A stretch of DNA of 45,904 nucleotides from Nitrospirota bacterium. Its GTDB lineage: Bacteria; UBA9089; CG2-30-40-21; SBAY01. The translations under genes were made by a program, and so were the position numbers. The notes beneath the pieces were generated by a model that was not told where the DNA came from, searched no databases, and saw only the letters and a list, made by a program, of their open reading frames with translations. The DNA is taken from NCBI GenBank assembly GCA_043816605.1, contig JBDRHR010000102.1:1-45904 (forward strand). The letters are read 5' to 3'. Shown in pieces: positions 22,750-42,632 of the stretch (position 1 is the stretch's first letter; the number at the start of each line of letters is the position of its first letter).

Positions 22750-23187
22750 ATGCTAAAAAAAATACTTTTGAGTTGTTGCTTAATACTCTCTTTAACAAGT
22801 CCTGCCTTTGGATTAAATGAAGGTGTTGACGATACAGATTGGGTAATATGTAAGCCTGTCCCACCCAAAGTATTTCCACTAAATGGTAATCTTAAAACGG
22901 TATTTACCTATATCATAACTTACACTGACCCGGAAGGAGCACCACCAAACTTTATTGAGGTCTGGATTGATGATAAAATATATCCTATGGAAAAGGTTGC
23001 TATCTTAGCTAATAATTATGCTGAGGGTGTTACTTATCAATACAAAACTAAACTTTCACCAGGAACTCACAAATATTCCTTTGCGACATCAGATGGGATT
23101 ATTAAAGTTAAAACACCTACTTTTAGTGGACCAATAGTGATGGAAGAAGACTATCCATATCCGGCTAAGGTAACTATAGGAAATTAA
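22750..23187 (+). CDS. Secreted hypothetical protein (beta-sandwich-like)
   Basis: Signal peptide ending PAFG; YTDPEGAPP...GTHKYSFATSDG. Confidence 0.7.
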   Translation: MLKKILLSCCLILSLTSPAFGLNEGVDDTDWVICKPVPPKVFPLNGNLKTVFTYIITYTDPEGAPPNFIEVWIDDKIYPMEKVAILANNYAEGVTYQYKTKLSPGTHKYSFATSDGIIKVKTPTFSGPIVMEEDYPYPAKVTIGN

Positions 23188-23290
23188 AAATTATGAATTA
23201 AAAATTAAAAATTGAGGAAAGAGAAAATAATTCATATTTTTTATTCTCTTACTCTTCAATTTTTAATTTTTAATTCATAATTTTTAATTT
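23182..23290. repeat. AATTAAA heptamer inverted repeat element supplying the upstream stop codon
   Basis: aattaaaaattatgaattaaaaattaaaaattga / tcaatttttaatttttaattcataatttttaatt. Confidence 0.85.
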
Positions 23291-23311
23291 CCTAATATTA
23301 AGGAGTAATGA

Positions 23312-35237: not shown

Positions 35238-36269
35238 ATGATTACAGGATTGATAATAATTCTTATTTTTGTACTTGTCTTGCCTTTCGTACTAAAAAAG
35301 GTAGAAGAGGAACTTGAGGTTTTTCTATTTGTCATGGGATTAATTGCCGTAAGTATAACTTATCAGTGGAGTGGGCACATTGTTAAAGAATGTTTAACAG
35401 AACCAATAAAAATAACGGTAGCCGTTTTTTTAGCCGGTATATTATTCAGGCTAATCCAAAAGCCTCTTGGTCAAAATTTAAATCTGATTGTTGAAAAGTT
35501 GGGATTAAAACTTTTTGTGTTTTTACTTGTGATTGTTTTAGGCATGCTTTCAAGCATCATTACCGCCATAATAGCTGCCTTAATATTAGCGGAAGTTATT
35601 ACTAACTTAAAATTAGATAAAAAGACAGAAATAAAAATTGTTGTTCTGACTTGTTTCTCCATAGGATTAGGTGCCGCCTTAACCCCTATTGGTGAACCAC
35701 TTTCAACCATAGCCATTGCAAAATTAAAAGGAGAACCATATTTTGCCGACTTTTGGTTTTTATTTAAACTTCTTGGGATTTATCTAATACCTGGAATAAT
35801 TATGGTTGGACTTATAGCCACAAAACTTGTAGGAAAAAGTCAAGGTGCAGAATATGGGCTTAAAGAAGAGAGATTGGAAAATTTTAAGGATATAATTACG
35901 AGAACCTTGAAGGTATATTTATTCATCATAGCATTAATTCTTCTCGGGACTGGTTTTAAGCCTTTAATTGAGATGTATATTTTAAAAATTCCTCCTTATG
36001 CCTTATACTGGGTTAATATTTTATATGCTGTCTTAGATAATGCCACTTTAACTGCGGCAGAAATTGGACCTGTTTTAAGTTTAATTCAAATTAAATATGC
36101 ACTTTTAGCCGCAATCATATCAGGTGGAATCTTAATACCCGGCAATATTCCAAATATTATCTCAGCCAATAAATTAAAAATAAAAAGTAAAGAATGGGCA
36201 AAAATAGGAATACCACTTGGACTTACATTAATGATAATTTACTTTATTCTATTAACTTTTGTTCAATAA
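35238..36269 (+). CDS. DUF1646-family membrane protein (ion transporter superfamily-like)
   Basis: GAALTPIGEPLSTI, LDNATLTAAEI, LIPGNIPNII. Confidence 0.8.
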   Translation: MITGLIIILIFVLVLPFVLKKVEEELEVFLFVMGLIAVSITYQWSGHIVKECLTEPIKITVAVFLAGILFRLIQKPLGQNLNLIVEKLGLKLFVFLLVIVLGMLSSIITAIIAALILAEVITNLKLDKKTEIKIVVLTCFSIGLGAALTPIGEPLSTIAIAKLKGEPYFADFWFLFKLLGIYLIPGIIMVGLIATKLVGKSQGAEYGLKEERLENFKDIITRTLKVYLFIIALILLGTGFKPLIEMYILKIPPYALYWVNILYAVLDNATLTAAEIGPVLSLIQIKYALLAAIISGGILIPGNIPNIISANKLKIKSKEWAKIGIPLGLTLMIIYFILLTFVQ

Positions 36270-36281
36270 GTAGGGACCACA

Positions 36282-36599
36282 ATGGGAAACAGAAGTATAA
36301 CTCAAAGAGAGAATGAAATATTAAACAAGACCATTGATATTCTTAAAAAATATCTTGAGCCGCACTTAGTTATTCTATTTGGCTCAAGGGCAAAACAAAA
36401 ATATCCTGCACATTCTGATTTTGACATGGCAATTGACAGGGAAAAGGTTGATATAAGGTTGGAAAGAAGGATAAGGGAAGAGATTGAGGAGGTATCAGGA
36501 CTTTATAAGGTTGATATTGTATTTTTGAACGCAGTGGATAAGTCCTTCAAAGATATAATCTTAAAAACAGGGAGAGTGGTTTATGGAAGAAAAGGTTAA
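36282..36599 (+). CDS. Minimal nucleotidyltransferase (MntA-like antitoxin)
   Basis: LFGSRA...SDFD (GSx10DxD), KVDIV. Confidence 0.88.
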   Translation: MGNRSITQRENEILNKTIDILKKYLEPHLVILFGSRAKQKYPAHSDFDMAIDREKVDIRLERRIREEIEEVSGLYKVDIVFLNAVDKSFKDIILKTGRVVYGRKG

Positions 36600-36984
36600 A
36601 TATGCCGTTGAAAAATTCACAAACGGTTTTAAAAGATTAAAAGAAGCTATACAAGAAGCTAAAGATGACCTTGATAAAGATGGAGCAATCCAAAGATTTG
36701 AATTCACATTTGAGTTATTATGGAAGGCATTAAAGATATTCCTTGAATATCAAGGGATTGTGGTGAATACACCAAGAGAAAGCTTAAAAGAGGCTTTCAG
36801 AATTAATTTACTTGGCGACGAGGAAGTATTCTTGCAGATGCTTGAAGATAGAAACAAGACATCCCATATTTATGATGAAGAAACCTCTGAAGAGATATTT
36901 GAGAGAATTAAAACTGCCTATATTCAATCTATAGAAAAGGTTTTAGCTAATCTACGGGCAAAGGTAGAATTAGAAATTAAGTAA
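36583..36984 (+). CDS. HEPN protein, HI0074 family (HepT-like toxin)
   Basis: IQRFEFTFELLWK, RNKTSH (Rx4H). Confidence 0.88.
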   Translation: MEEKVKYAVEKFTNGFKRLKEAIQEAKDDLDKDGAIQRFEFTFELLWKALKIFLEYQGIVVNTPRESLKEAFRINLLGDEEVFLQMLEDRNKTSHIYDEETSEEIFERIKTAYIQSIEKVLANLRAKVELEIK

Positions 36985-36988
36985 TAGT

Positions 36989-37112
36989 TCACCACAGAGA
37001 CACGGAGGCACAGAGAATGATTTTGGAAGAAGCACTTACAGAACAGATAATTGGGACAGCAATAGAAGTTCATAATCTGATTTTTTCCCGTGTCTCCGTG
37101 TCTCTGTGGTGA
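36989..37112. mobile_element. 9-mer-period inverted repeat element enclosing a GxxExxY gene fragment
   Basis: Perfect 19-bp arms tcaccacagagacacggag (36989-37007) / ctccgtgtctctgtggtga (37094-37112). Confidence 0.8.
37017..37079 (+). pseudogene. N-terminal fragment of a GxxExxY (PD-(D/E)xK-like) protein
   Basis: MILEEALTEQIIGTAIEVHNL matches the GxxExxY N-terminus LT.QIIG.AIEVH..LG; the rest is missing. Confidence 0.75.
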
Positions 37113-37151
37113 GATGAACTATTACGAAATTAATAATTTGGAGGTAGCGAA

Positions 37152-38330
37152 ATAAAGAAAAAGAAAAAAAGTTGGCAACTGTTTTGGGTGATGGTTTGTA
37201 TCCCTATGGTTTGGGTAATCTTGCGATTTTCAGGTTGGCATTGGGAAGGACAGCCCATTTTAACTGCTTGTTTGTCAGGGCTGGCGATTGTTGCGTCGGC
37301 ATTTCTATTGTGCTGGGCGGCTGAAGTTGCCCAAAAGGATGTCTCGCAGGCATTAGCTTTAGCCTTTTTGGCATTGATTGCAGTTTTACCTGAATACGCC
37401 GTAGATATGTATTTTACCTGGATGGCAGGCAAAGACCCACAATATATCCCTTATGCGATGGCAAATATGACCGGGGCTAATCGATTACTTATTGGATTTG
37501 GCTGGGCATTGGTCGTTTTCCTTTATTGGATAACAAAAAAGGCAAAATGTGTAGAATTGGAAGAAGGACATAAAATAGAAATATCCGCTTTAGCTCTGGC
37601 TACTTTATATTCCTTCATTATCCCCATCAAGGGGTCTTTATCCCTCATTGATACGGTAGTTCTCCTGAGCCTGTTTGTCTTTTATATCATACAAGCTTCA
37701 AAGGCACATGTAACAGAGCCGGAACTTATTGGTCCTGCTATGGAAATTGGGATGTTTCCTGATGTTCCAAGGCGGTTAATCATCACATCTTTATTTCTAT
37801 ATTCTGCTTTTGTTATCCTTGTTTCCGCAGAGCCTTTTGCCGAGGGATTACTTAGTACCGGAAGAATCTTTAAGATAGATGAATTTATCCTTGTTCAGTG
37901 GTTAGCCCCACTTGCCTCTGAGGCTCCTGAGATTATTGCCGCTTCATTGTTTGTTTTGAAGGCAAAACCTACTATGGGACTGGGCACATTAGTCTCGTCA
38001 AAGGTGAACCAGTGGACACTGCTTGTTGGAATGATACCGATTGTTTATTGTATCTCGGCTGGTAAGATTGCACCAATGCTCATTGATGCCCGGCAAATAG
38101 AGGAGCTATTTCTTACCGCCGCACAATCCGTCTTTGGTGTGGCAATCTTAATCAATTTAAGTATTTCTACGAGAGAGGCATTGATTTTATTCATATTGTT
38201 TGTGACACAATTGGTTTTGCCATCAAGGGAGATACGGCTGATTTATGGTTTTGTTTATCTGGTGTTAGCCTTTTTCATTTTCTATAAAGATAAGGCAAGA
38301 CTAAAAAATCTGTTTTCGCTTTTTAAATAG
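37152..38330 (+). CDS. Na+/Ca2+ (CaCA family) cation antiporter
   Basis: AVLPEYAVD, ANMTGANRLL, APLASEAPE, SSKVNQWTLL; start is ATA 37152 or GTG 37188. Confidence 0.85.
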   Translation: MKKKKKSWQLFWVMVCIPMVWVILRFSGWHWEGQPILTACLSGLAIVASAFLLCWAAEVAQKDVSQALALAFLALIAVLPEYAVDMYFTWMAGKDPQYIPYAMANMTGANRLLIGFGWALVVFLYWITKKAKCVELEEGHKIEISALALATLYSFIIPIKGSLSLIDTVVLLSLFVFYIIQASKAHVTEPELIGPAMEIGMFPDVPRRLIITSLFLYSAFVILVSAEPFAEGLLSTGRIFKIDEFILVQWLAPLASEAPEIIAASLFVLKAKPTMGLGTLVSSKVNQWTLLVGMIPIVYCISAGKIAPMLIDARQIEELFLTAAQSVFGVAILINLSISTREALILFILFVTQLVLPSREIRLIYGFVYLVLAFFIFYKDKARLKNLFSLFK

Positions 38331-39309: not shown

Positions 39310-40881
39310 ATGAATAATGTATTAATCTATGATACGACCCTACGAGATGGGGCACAAACTGAAGGAATATCGTTTTCTGTTAAGGAAAAGATTCGGATTA
39401 CTCAAATGATAGACCATCTGGGTGTTCATTATATCGAAGGTGGTTGGCCTGGGTCAAATCAAAAAGAGACCGAGTTCTTTCAGGTGATAAAGAATTACCC
39501 CCTTAAAAATGCGAAGCTTGTTGCCTTTGGAAGTACCAGACGGGCAAAACACAAAGTGGAAAATGACCCAAGTTTTTTAGAGCTATTAAAGGCAGAAACG
39601 CAGGTAGTCTGTATATTTGGTAAAACTTGGGACCTGCATGTGCATGAGGCACTCAATATCCCTTTGGAAGAAAATTTAGAGTTAATACAAGACTCGGTAA
39701 GTTATTTAAAATCAAAAGGTAAAGAGGTAATTTATGATGCCGAGCACTTCTTTGACGGCTATAAGGCAAATCCTGAATATGCCTTAAAAACTATTTTTAC
39801 GGCACAAAACGCCGGGGCAGATACAATTGTGCTTTGCGATACTAATGGCGGCATGCTCCCTTATGAAATAGAAAAGCCAATTAAAGAGGCACTAAAAGTA
39901 ATTAAAGTGCCTCTGGGTATTCATAGCCATAATGATTCAGATATGGCGGTAGCAAATTCTATCATTGCCATAAAGTTAGGCTGCCGGCATGTCCAGGGGA
40001 CTATCAATGGTTATGGGGAACGATGTGGTAATGCAGATTTATGTGCCATCATACCCAATTTAAAACTTAAAATGGGCATAAATTGTATTTCAGATGAGCA
40101 ACTTGGGAGTTTAACAGAGGTATCCAGATTTGTCGCAGAAATGGCAAATTTCATCCCGCAACCTCATACACCTTACGTAGGAAGCTCTGCCTTTGCTCAT
40201 AAAGGTGGGGTTCATGTCAGTGGTGTCCAAAAAAATCCTAAAACATACGAACATATTCAACCGAAATTAGTTGGGAATGAGCGGAAAATACTCATCTCAG
40301 AATTAGCCGGACAAAGTAATATCTTAGAGAAGGCAAAGGAACTCAAGATAGACCTTAACGAGGCAAGCCTCTCAAAAAATACACCACAAACAAGAAAAAT
40401 ATTAGCCAGGGTTAAAGAGAAAGAACACGAAGGTTACCAATTTGAATCTGCAGATGCCTCATTTGAATTACTGATAAAAAAGGCGTTAGGAAAATATAAA
40501 CCCAGTTTTGAATTAAAGAAATTTGAGGTTATTGTCGAAAATAGAAATGGAGAGCTTTTTTCAGATGCGATTATTAAAATAGAGGTAAATGGTCAGGAAA
40601 AATATATAGTTGCAGAAGGTGATGGTCCGGTGAACGCACTGGATACTGCCCTTAGAAAGGCATTAGAAGATGCTTACCCAATTCTAAAAAAGATTCATTT
40701 AACGGATTACAAGGTCAGGGTGCTGGATGCCAAAGAAGGCACAGCCGCAAAGGTCCGGGTATTAATTGAGTCAACAGATGGAAAAGATTTCTGGGGCACA
40801 GTTGGGGTCTCTGAAAATATCATTGATGCCTCCTGGCAGGCATTAGTGGATTCAGTAGAATACATTCTTTCTAAGAATTAA
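39310..40881 (+). CDS. cimA: Citramalate synthase
   Basis: [40 protein letters not shown]. Confidence 0.9.
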
Positions 40882-40976
40882 AAATTATGAATTAAAAATT
40901 AAAAATTATAAGATTAAGAATTAAGAATTATTTTCTAACTCCTCAATTTTTAATTTTTAATTCATAATTTTTAATT
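40876..40976. repeat. AATTAAA heptamer inverted repeat element (copy of 23182-23290)
   Basis: Same arms aattaaaaattatgaattaaaaattaaaaatt / aatttttaatttttaattcataatttttaatt; overlaps the cimA stop codon. Confidence 0.85.
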
Positions 40977-42444: not shown

Positions 42445-42632
42445 AAATGTGTAATGTGTAATGTCTTACATAACACATTACACATCTAACATTACACAGT
42501 TAAGCCATCAGGGCACAAAGGCACTAAAAAGTTAAAGTAAGCAGTCGGCAGGAGGCAGTAAGCAGGAAATAAAAATTATTTCTTACTTTCTCCTTCTCAT
42601 TTTCTTCGTGTCTTTGTGCCTTCGTGGCTAAA
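42445..42632. repeat. Cluster of short-period inverted repeats between the metF-like gene and queA
   Basis: tgtgtaa / ttacaca heptamers (42445-42497); gccatcagggcacaaaggcac / gtgtctttgtgccttcgtggc 9-mer arms (42504-42628) enclosing gcagtcg/gcaggag/gcagtaa heptamers. Confidence 0.75.

Follow-up and report, generated by a model that had tools for sequence, protein, structure and literature searches.

The locus and the parts of the element

The DNA considered here, called the window throughout, is the whole of contig JBDRHR010000102.1 (45,904 nucleotides) from the Nitrospirota bacterium assembly GCA_043816605.1, and the subject of this analysis is a 145-bp element at positions 36981–37125, in which the stub of a GxxExxY gene lies between inverted arms and which is itself flanked by 8-bp direct repeats. 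An initial annotation had described the element as a short-period inverted repeat with perfect arms, caught with the beginning of a gene and placed directly after an MNT-HEPN pair. The placement was borne out by the two plus-strand genes upstream, one for an MNT-type nucleotidyltransferase, the antitoxin-like partner (36282–36599; PF18765 Polbeta, 4.3e-18), and one for a HEPN-type (NTase_sub_bind) protein (36583–36984; PF08780, 1e-35). Downstream, on the same strand, follows a gene of the Na+/Ca2+ exchanger family (37152–38330; PF01699, 9.4e-27), which is in frame from an ATA at 37152 and starts at a GTG at 37188 in the list of open reading frames (ORFs). The nucleotidyltransferase and exchanger genes are mentioned as context only.

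The left copy of the flanking repeat, an 8-bp target-site duplication (TSD) reading GAAATTAA, occupies 36973–36980 and is identical at 8 of 8 positions to the right copy at 37126–37133; in the latter and the bases that follow it (ATTAATAATT) the HEPN gene's original 3′ end is taken up again, as judged from the orthologue in the related genome G014. The left terminal inverted repeat (TIR), GTAATAGTTCA at 36981–36991, is an IS66/ISBst12-like end beginning with GTAA, and all ten of the terminal bases compared are complementary to the right end, so that it pairs with the right TIR, TGAACTATTAC at 37115–37125. Between the two lie the left short-period arm (36992–37016), composed of a C and the units CACAGAGA, CACGGAGG and CACAGAGA; the remnant of the GxxExxY gene on the plus strand (37017–37076; MILEEALTEQIIGTAIEVHN), made up of the start codon and 19 codons; a 3′ remnant, CTGATTTTTTC (37077–37087, plus strand), with the original gene's last bases, an out-of-frame stop and the 3′ tail; and the right short-period arm, CCGTGTCTCCGTGTCTCTGTGG (37088–37109). 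A 5-nt spacer, TGAGA (37110–37114), is present on the right side only, and reads TGAGC in a sister copy on another contig of this genome (C210:3643–3860, with the same ends and arms) and TGAGG in the copies of genome G012. Both arms were read in the sequence and recovered by a repeat search.

The arms are perfect over 18 nt, CACCACAGAGACACGGAG at 36991–37008 having its exact reverse complement at 37095–37112, and the repeat search extended them to 23 nt with one mismatch (36989–37011 and 37090–37112; 96% complementary, 78 nt apart). The core 15-mer of the arm, CACAGAGACACGGAG, occurs six times in the window when up to three mismatches are allowed, against 0.37 expected, and 0 of 100 shuffled sequences reached six. 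The description of perfect arms around a GxxExxY stub therefore stands for these 18 nt, whereas the unit is larger than had been claimed, since it runs from 36981 to 37125 and is bordered by the 8-bp repeats. Nor does the mobile unit end at the arms; its true ends are the 11-bp IS66/ISBst12-like terminal repeats with their 8-bp target duplication. The ATG was found, as proposed, immediately after the left arm at 37017. It opens the sole ORF of the element, a stub of 31 codons (37017–37112; MILEEALTEQIIGTAIEVHNLIFSRVSVSLW) whose TGA stop lies within the right arm, and the element contains no transposase gene.

The GxxExxY remnant and its full-length relatives

When the 31-residue stub was compared with Pfam, no family was found at E ≤ 1, and the assignment of the stub to the GxxExxY family rests on its full-length relatives because Pfam by itself gives no match. 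To find such relatives, 41 related genomes were searched with the region and 18 matching loci were fetched. Among them, locus L029 in genome G003 holds an intact gene of 124 codons inside the same arms (CACCACAGAGACACGGAGGCACGGAG ... CTCTGTGCCTCTGTGTCTCCGTGGTGA), the product of which matches TIGR04256, "GxxExxY protein", with 156.6 bits and PF13366 with 148.4 bits. Locus L036 in genome G017 holds a complete coding sequence that is interrupted by a nested hairpin, and it is likewise recognised by the GxxExxY profiles (TIGR04256 / PF13366). The first 20 residues of the stub are identical to both proteins at 16 of 20 positions, counted manually on the alignment, which upheld the proposal that the short peptide (21 residues in the initial annotation) is a GxxExxY N-terminus and aligns with GxxExxY proteins. 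On the DNA level, 36993–37073 matched the L029 cassette with 87.8% identity over 82 nt (BLAST, E 7e-19).

By descent, the stub is thus the N-terminus of a member of the GxxExxY (PF13366/TIGR04256) family. It does not contain the G-x-x-E-x-x-Y motif, for the alignment ends at ...EVHN, ahead of the LGPGLLESAY of L029, and the remainder of the PD-(D/E)XK fold beyond codon 20 is deleted in the window copy. With 20 residues left it does not pass the profile test of the family, in which about 116 residues above the curated cut-off are needed.

The initial annotation held that the gene was cut off by the right arm. This was not upheld, and an internal deletion that joined codon 20 to the native 3′ bases was found in its place. 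In the window, codon 20 is followed by CTGATTTTTTC and this by the right arm, where the end of the L036 gene reads CTGATTTTTC; comparison with the gene ends of L036 (...gttctCTGATTTTTCtctgtg) and L029 (...CTGTTAATTTTTCTC) places the right edge of the deletion at 37077–37087. Both arms are kept, and between them the first 20 codons, beginning with the start, as well as the gene's last bases with its stop and 3′ tail, so that the loss is an internal deletion and not a truncation by the arm. Estimated from the 375-nt intact gene, it removed about 310 nt, from codon 21 to the end. Of the intact GxxExxY genes, L029 has the same CCACAGAGACAC-type arms, as the initial annotation would have it, and 0 of 4 in the present genome have them; these four genes have inverted short-period arms of other sequences.

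Terminal repeats and target duplication

The left end GTAATAGTTCA is common to the window element and its sister copy, and the right end reads TGAACTATTAC in the former and TGAACTGTTAC in the latter. Outside these ends, the direct repeats are GAAATTAA / GAAATTAA in the window (8/8) and CTTTCGCC / CTTTCGTC at the sister copy (7/8). A pattern search of the whole genome for GTAAYNRYTCA...TGARYNRTTAC, with the two ends within 1.2 kb of each other, returned 37 pairs, to which the left end of the window element conforms. Their interiors vary, with diverse short-period arms, and the 11-bp ends are common to all. The flanking 8-mers were identical at 8 of 8 positions in 15 pairs and at 7 of 8 in another 5. 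As a control, the right flank was shifted by 10–50 nt, which gave 185 comparisons; none of them reached 7/8 and one reached 6/8. Such matching of the flanks at these 37 end pairs is the mark that transposition leaves when the cut is staggered by 8 bp. The window element is small and has no transposase, and it has terminal inverted repeats, a duplication of fixed length and multiple dispersed copies, all of them features of MITEs (miniature inverted-repeat transposable elements).

A second type of end, CGACCTGTGCAATC, is also accompanied by 8-bp duplications. Seven end pairs of this type were counted in the genome, several of them with such duplications, and one is used by C178, a degenerate GxxExxY locus with terminal repeats and a duplication. 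In genomes G003 and G005, ends of this type enclose cassettes with CCACAGAG arms (L029, L034, L035). The window itself contains, at 1097–1473, a 377-bp element with the ends CGACCTGTGCAATC... / ...GATTGCACAGGTCG and the 8-bp duplication CAATATTA.

The insertion site

The insertion interrupts the HEPN gene within its final codons, and the gene now ends ...ELEIK-TAA; target duplication and terminal repeat (G|TAA) together supply its last codon and its TAA stop (36982–36984). If the element and one copy of the repeat were taken out, the HEPN frame would run ...ELEINNLEVAK-stop, and the site before insertion would have been a HEPN 3′ end lacking 36981–37133 and reading ...GAATTAGAAATTAATAATTTGG. 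The HEPN orthologues in G010 (92% identity) and G014 (90%) have no element. That of G014 is uninterrupted and reads ...gggaaaATTAATAATTaacc, in which ATTAATAATT corresponds to the bases that follow the element in the window. The last HEPN codons of both genomes differ from those of the window, so that they lend support without amounting to an exact empty site, and as such they favour an insertion after the divergence from the G010 and G014 lineages. In G004, a genome of the same family, the whole MNT-HEPN module is missing and the stop codon of a DUF1646 gene is directly followed by the ribosome-binding site of the exchanger gene; the MNT-HEPN module is therefore itself an addition at this junction. 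G001 and G010 have other hairpins at the same place (window 36270–37136), and the junction around MNT-HEPN is a hot spot for insertions.

The initial annotation had proposed to look for strains with full, stub and empty alleles here. Neither full nor empty alleles of the same element were found at this junction among the relatives, which either have no element (G010, G014) or no module (G004). Among the contigs of four DNA sequencing runs, one of 290 nt, probably from the source sample, agreed with the filled allele at 0 differences. A contig of depth 2.1 from a groundwater run skips 36956–37137 with 21 nt on its shorter side, and was not counted as an empty allele.

The use of the repeat's TAA as a stop codon is not confined to the window. 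The gene upstream of the sister copy stops in the same way; no clean empty site was found for that copy, as G001 and G004 keep the upstream gene, with other hairpins in the spacer, and end it one codon past the homologous ...CTTTC. Six of the 20 GTAA elements that bear a duplication have a frame with 80 or more open codons (138–892) that runs up to their edge. Five of these frames stop exactly at the repeat's TAA (C29:12194, C39:2688, C101:3029, C102:36981, which is the window element, and C210:3643), and for the sixth, C73:9292, the stop of the gene itself precedes the element by two bases. The GTAA-type elements thus alter host genes, with the repeat TAA becoming a stop codon in 5 of 20 duplication-bearing copies. 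Surviving insertions are often found at the extreme 3′ ends of genes, presumably through selection.

On the other side of the element, 37152–37154 is ATA where the exchanger genes of G004 and G010 start with ATG and a lysine-rich stretch; the frame of this ATA is that of the GTG/ATG at 37188/37191. The exchanger may have lost its start codon, or the start may have shifted.

A candidate mobilising transposase

MITEs and mobile insertion cassettes (MICs) are derivatives of insertion sequences (ISs) that have no transposase and can be activated by the cognate transposase of a related IS, as set out in PMC3129680. A candidate for such an enzyme was suggested by genes that have similar ends. In G003, locus L040 contains a 20-nt perfect inverted repeat, TTTTTGTAACCGTTCAGGTA / TACCTGAACGGTTACAAAAA, in which GTAACCGTTCAGGTA is included and which encloses 1533 nt; the interior holds three ORF pieces that cover positions 3–64, 105–178 and 234–282 of PF03050 (DDE_Tnp_IS66). 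In G010, the 579 bp between GTAACCGTTCA and TGAACGATTAC at locus L043 enclose, by coordinates, the site of a match to the C-terminus of PF03050. Three PF03050 fragments are present in the genome studied here; two are close to contig ends, and each lies near an end reading GTAATGGGTCAG.

The nearest described counterpart is ISDge4 of Deinococcus geothermalis, a member of the ISBst12 group of the IS66 family, for which PMC12898284 gives GTGACTACTCAGCA / GTAACTGCTCAGCA as TIRs and reports that transposition produced the direct repeat CCTCGATG, of 8 bp. By comparison, many elements of this genome start with GTAACTACTCAGC. Ends that begin with GTAA, together with repeats of 8–9 bp, are presumably typical of the whole IS66 family. 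Because like ends bracket broken PF03050 genes in relatives, and because the ends and the 8-bp repeat of ISDge4 are similar, we infer mobilisation in trans by a transposase of the ISBst12 group: an IS66-family DDE enzyme, acting on the terminal repeats, would have pasted the element into the HEPN gene.

Taken together, 36981–37125 is probably (with a probability of roughly 70%) a dead, non-autonomous, MITE-like element that was mobilised in trans by an IS66-family transposase and whose interior is the relic of a GxxExxY cassette. Ancestors that still bore the gene would be classed among the mobile insertion cassettes. What is new is that a candidate mobilising enzyme, an IS66/ISBst12-group transposase, can be named for cassette copies in one bacterial family.

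Several observations weigh against this account. The assembly, which is 93.6% complete and consists of 250 contigs, yielded no intact transposase whose ends are exactly the same, so that its absence is not proven. L040 has no TSD, and GTAATGGGTCAG agrees with the TIR of the window at GTAA....TCA only. Among the ten G012 copies that were read, a TSD was recognised in one and both terminal repeats were kept in six. When a filter for TIR and TSD was applied to the 18 fetched relatives, three passed, compared with 4 of 72 controls; two of these three, L022 (GTAA type) and L035 (CGACCTGTGCAATC type), are perfect. Identical arms occur inside both types of shell, GTAA and CGACCTGTGCAATC, which could mean that the cassette was captured by the shell or that it inserted into the shell. 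The shell belongs to a minority: of 477 inverted-repeat elements with a score of at least 18 in this genome, most of them 60–150 bp long, 33 are flanked by GTAA-type ends at both sides and another 50 at one, where the chance expected from background is 0.007 per 44-nt side. The seven GxxExxY loci of the genome have terminal repeats and a duplication in the three degenerate ones only (C102, C210 and C178), and a convincing shell with TSD was seen in 0 of the 4 intact GxxExxY genes and 0 of the 6 four-helix-bundle cassettes; two four-helix-bundle loci with a TSD of 7/8 and a TIR of 8–9/10 have ends of neither shell type and were counted as chance. Finally, TIRs with an 8-bp TSD were found in 0 of 80 GxxExxY loci from other phyla (control 5/320). 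Accordingly, the transposon shell was added locally; it accounts for how this copy and its kin moved, and not for how cassettes of this class move in general.

A graded series of decay

The left arm and the first ~75 nt of the ORF recur at 87–90% identity at many unrelated loci in G012, G003, G005 and G017. In G012 there are at least 27 places that match a query holding the sister copy, nearly all of them over the left end of the query. The ten of these copies that were read (L019–L028) have different internal deletions and 72, 52, 35 or 16 codons before the stop. L020 and L027 have a deletion junction in common, which lies between a pair of short direct repeats that resemble each other (GGTCCTGGTTT... 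/ ...CCTGTTTTGAAAGA). L023, L026 and L028 have one early stop in common, and it follows that copies that were already dead had multiplied. The sister copy in the present genome retains the first ~14 codons and a C-terminal piece with a weak match to PF13366 (E 0.0065). Since the G012 copies and the sister copy are differently deleted, the stub of the window represents an element that carried a gene and is now far advanced in its decay. A graded series that leads, inside one arm family, from an intact gene to a 20-codon stub is a new observation.

Longer copies are not restricted to assembled genomes. In two biofilm metagenome runs (X1 and X2), contigs covering the arms and stub (36981–37128) had a summed depth of 190–2300, compared with ~5 for the flanks, and a 523-nt contig of depth 254 continues beyond 37074 into the region of the GxxExxY motif (...LGPGLLES). 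The deep coverage and this contig indicate that longer copies of the cassette are abundant in the biofilm community.

The stem-loop as RNA

As RNA, 36977–37133 folds into one long stem-loop with a minimum free energy of -63.2 kcal/mol (z -9.55), and 0 of 200 shuffled sequences were as stable. The copy would encode nothing functional today, and its remaining property would be this very stable stem-loop between the HEPN and exchanger genes, the effect of which is probably neutral. No RNA sequencing runs containing the stretch were found.

One could suppose that such a structure is a regulatory hairpin that evolved locally, or a chance palindrome with a fortuitous ATG, and its intergenic position between two co-directional genes would suit this idea. 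It is almost certainly wrong: copies 87–90% identical lie at unrelated loci in this and other genomes, there is a TIR and TSD signature as well as homology to full-length genes, and a terminator scan detected no T-tract terminator at the element.

A more substantial alternative is that the element acts as RNA in the manner of the intervening sequences (IVSs) of 23S rRNA, the stem formed by the inverted arms being cut by RNase III so that the cargo mRNA is excised or insulated, with the DNA ends being incidental. The IVS in helix 45 of the 23S rRNA of Coxiella burnetii, with its S23p cargo, is of the same design, in that a selfish inverted-repeat stem encloses a small ORF in a transcribed region, as described in PMC4990558. 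The sense orientation of the stub between co-directional genes and the great stability of the RNA stem would fit such a role. Selection on the RNA should favour G:U pairs, yet the mismatches on the sense strand of the arms were 37 of G:U type and 46 of A:C type (binomial p 0.38) over 1574 arm positions in 47 bracketed loci, and by locus 11 leaned to G:U and 14 to A:C; the ungapped alignment and the repeating units make this a weak test and not a refutation. In addition, no Rfam family reached its gathering score (the best hit had 38.8 bits against the 58 needed, and generic miRNA-precursor models were the only ones to match), and an RNA role leaves the 8-bp direct repeats and the conserved 11-bp ends unexplained. 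As an account of the element, the RNA reading is unlikely, but it is compatible with the transposon reading, and both can hold.

The differences from the 23S rRNA IVSs are also plain. The element stands outside rRNA, between protein-coding genes (Rfam gave no rRNA match in 36200–37900); its cargo is GxxExxY and not S23p; and it has terminal repeats, a target duplication and no mismatch sign of selection at the RNA level. Putative four-helix-bundle (S23p-like) cargo, judged from the sequences, does occur in hairpin cassettes of this genome. ORF-bearing IVSs of the 23S rRNA are also known from Leptospira.

How general are the arms and the shell?

GxxExxY and four-helix-bundle genes are small genes that are very common in bacterial genomes, and how they spread is the question to which these cassettes are relevant. 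In other phyla, an inverted repeat with a score of at least 14 brackets 43 of 80 GxxExxY loci, compared with 0 of 80 when the right flank was shuffled. Among 76 usable loci, 27 have at least two CACRRAG units upstream and at least two CTYYGTG units downstream; the controls gave 1/76 for distal positions and 3/76 for the inverse arrangement. These counts suggest that gene and CACRRAG arms have long been one unit, whose parts move jointly across phyla. The possibility that the shell is a general feature of GxxExxY and four-helix-bundle cassettes was ruled out by the counts of 0/80, 0/4 and 0/6 given above. With 0 of 80 loci elsewhere in a shell and 27 of 76 with the same arm unit, the cassette must have another route of spread. 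In the present family, the unit of arms and gene also sits in transposon shells (GTAA and CGACCTGTGCAATC), by which decayed copies would have kept on spreading.

Another explanation is that the cassette mobilises itself. The GxxExxY protein, with its PD-(D/E)XK fold, would recognise its own CACRRAG arrays, cut at them and so drive the spread, and the stub would be an orphan left after the nuclease gene had decayed. This would agree with the conservation of the arm unit and its polarity with the gene clade (the 27/76 versus 3/76 inverse and 1/76 distal) and with the bracketing of 43/80 loci versus 0/80 controls, and the different arms of the paralogues in this genome are as expected if protein and arms co-vary. 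Against it, cassettes of the same design carry an unrelated four-helix-bundle cargo, from which it can be argued that the cargo is a passenger, and dead copies multiplied in G012, as the common stop of L023, L026 and L028 indicates. In the literature searched, no work was found on nuclease activity or DNA binding of GxxExxY proteins. As an explanation of the window element, self-mobilisation is very unlikely.

Some of its parts recur in a more inclusive scheme, in which hairpin cassettes would be ancient, cross-phylum minimal mobile elements whose CACRRAG arrays are recognised by their own PD-(D/E)XK nuclease; in this lineage they would have been enclosed repeatedly by transposon ends (the IS66/ISBst12 type and the second type), and the dead copies would have spread as MITEs and seeded hundreds of gene-less hairpins. 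This scheme, too, we regard as quite improbable in its entirety.

Gene-less hairpins

The initial annotation had proposed that the short-period inverted repeats as a class are carriers of small genes, and that the gene-less hairpins found elsewhere are collapsed or excised carriers of the GxxExxY type. The carrier half of this proposal gained support from the intact L029 and from the decay series, in which 124 codons are reduced to 72, 52, 35 and 16, with 20 in the window. Furthermore, the arm family CCACAGAG/CACGGAG is represented by about 20 loci, mostly gene-less and roughly 70–200 bp long, and one of them, C78, still has, beside its right arm, a few bases from the cassette's 3′ tail.

The collapse half did not fare as well. 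In 10 of 11 short-loop copies, only the arms are in common with the full cassette (BLAST-short), and the resemblance of C78 and C177 to the 5′ part of the cassette that is seen by eye lies in AT-rich sequence and is not significant. The loops of C104, C107, C117 and C176 contain nested hairpins, and those of C30, C55 and C194 contain unrelated sequence. Arms of the same family are also found with four-helix-bundle and other cargo in this genome, and a gene-less copy therefore cannot be assigned to a lost GxxExxY gene. Taken as a whole, the proposal is possible but doubtful.

The nested hairpins, in which the arms of one family surround those of another, lie at C117:723–945, C176:10596–10716, C104:5204–5302 and C107:1165–1256, and that of L036 is inside the GxxExxY gene. 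Their positions suggest that the loops of existing hairpins are favoured targets.

Relation to known elements

The initial observation was thus confirmed and enlarged, and the interpretation given to it was supported in part. The copy in the window is in itself ordinary genomic debris; the additions are the decay series, the shell with its candidate enzyme, and the arm unit that crosses phyla.

In small size, absence of a transposase, TIRs, TSD and number of copies, the element resembles the MITEs and MICs of the IS66 family (ISBst12 group, e.g., ISDge4). The ends of ISDge4 that start with GTAA and its 8-bp duplication are alike as well, according to PMC12898284. It differs from IS-derived MITEs and MICs in its interior, which is not a deleted transposase but consists of inverted arrays of 8–9-nt units and a gene, or gene remnant, of the PD-(D/E)XK family; and unlike IS66-type MITEs, the module also occurs in a second type of shell and mostly without a shell. 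With respect to the GxxExxY family (TIGR04256 / PF13366, PDDEXK_3), the stub corresponds to the N-terminal 20 residues of a member, and with the motif and the nuclease core deleted no member is encoded.

The Correia/NEMIS elements of Neisseria and the ERIC, RUP and BOX elements are intergenic MITEs that fold into RNA hairpins and are co-transcribed with their neighbours, and NEMIS is cut by RNase III. They are similar in being short palindromic mobile repeats between genes, and they differ in having no gene remnant and other ends or duplications (TA for Correia). No description of hairpin-bracketed cassettes, or of IS66-type MITEs that carry them, was found in the literature searched, most subscription journals being outside the search.

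Further hairpins and bracketed genes

Other hairpins of the window belong to families that recur in the genome. One with AATTAAAAATTATGAATTAAAAATTAAAAATT arms and loops of 37–40 nt is present at 23177–23294 and 40876–40976, and recurs on many contigs. Arrays of a related unit, CACAAAG/CACGAAG, lie at 1857–1880, 13867–13882 and 42604–42626; copies of this arm family are numerous across the genome and frequently stand beside ends of the GTAACAGTTCAG type. At C244:5056–5387, a 157-nt perfect palindrome stands at the end of the contig, in which an apparent tRNA 3′ part, ending in CCA, leads into TGGTAAA repeats, and it may be a fold-back artefact of the assembly. Other small genes in inverted-repeat brackets were noted at C205:3657–4377, C222:1835–2463, C18:17402–18142 and C118:8314–9165, and we take them to resemble IS200/RAYT-like transposases, a DUF559-like endonuclease and an ORF6N-type protein.

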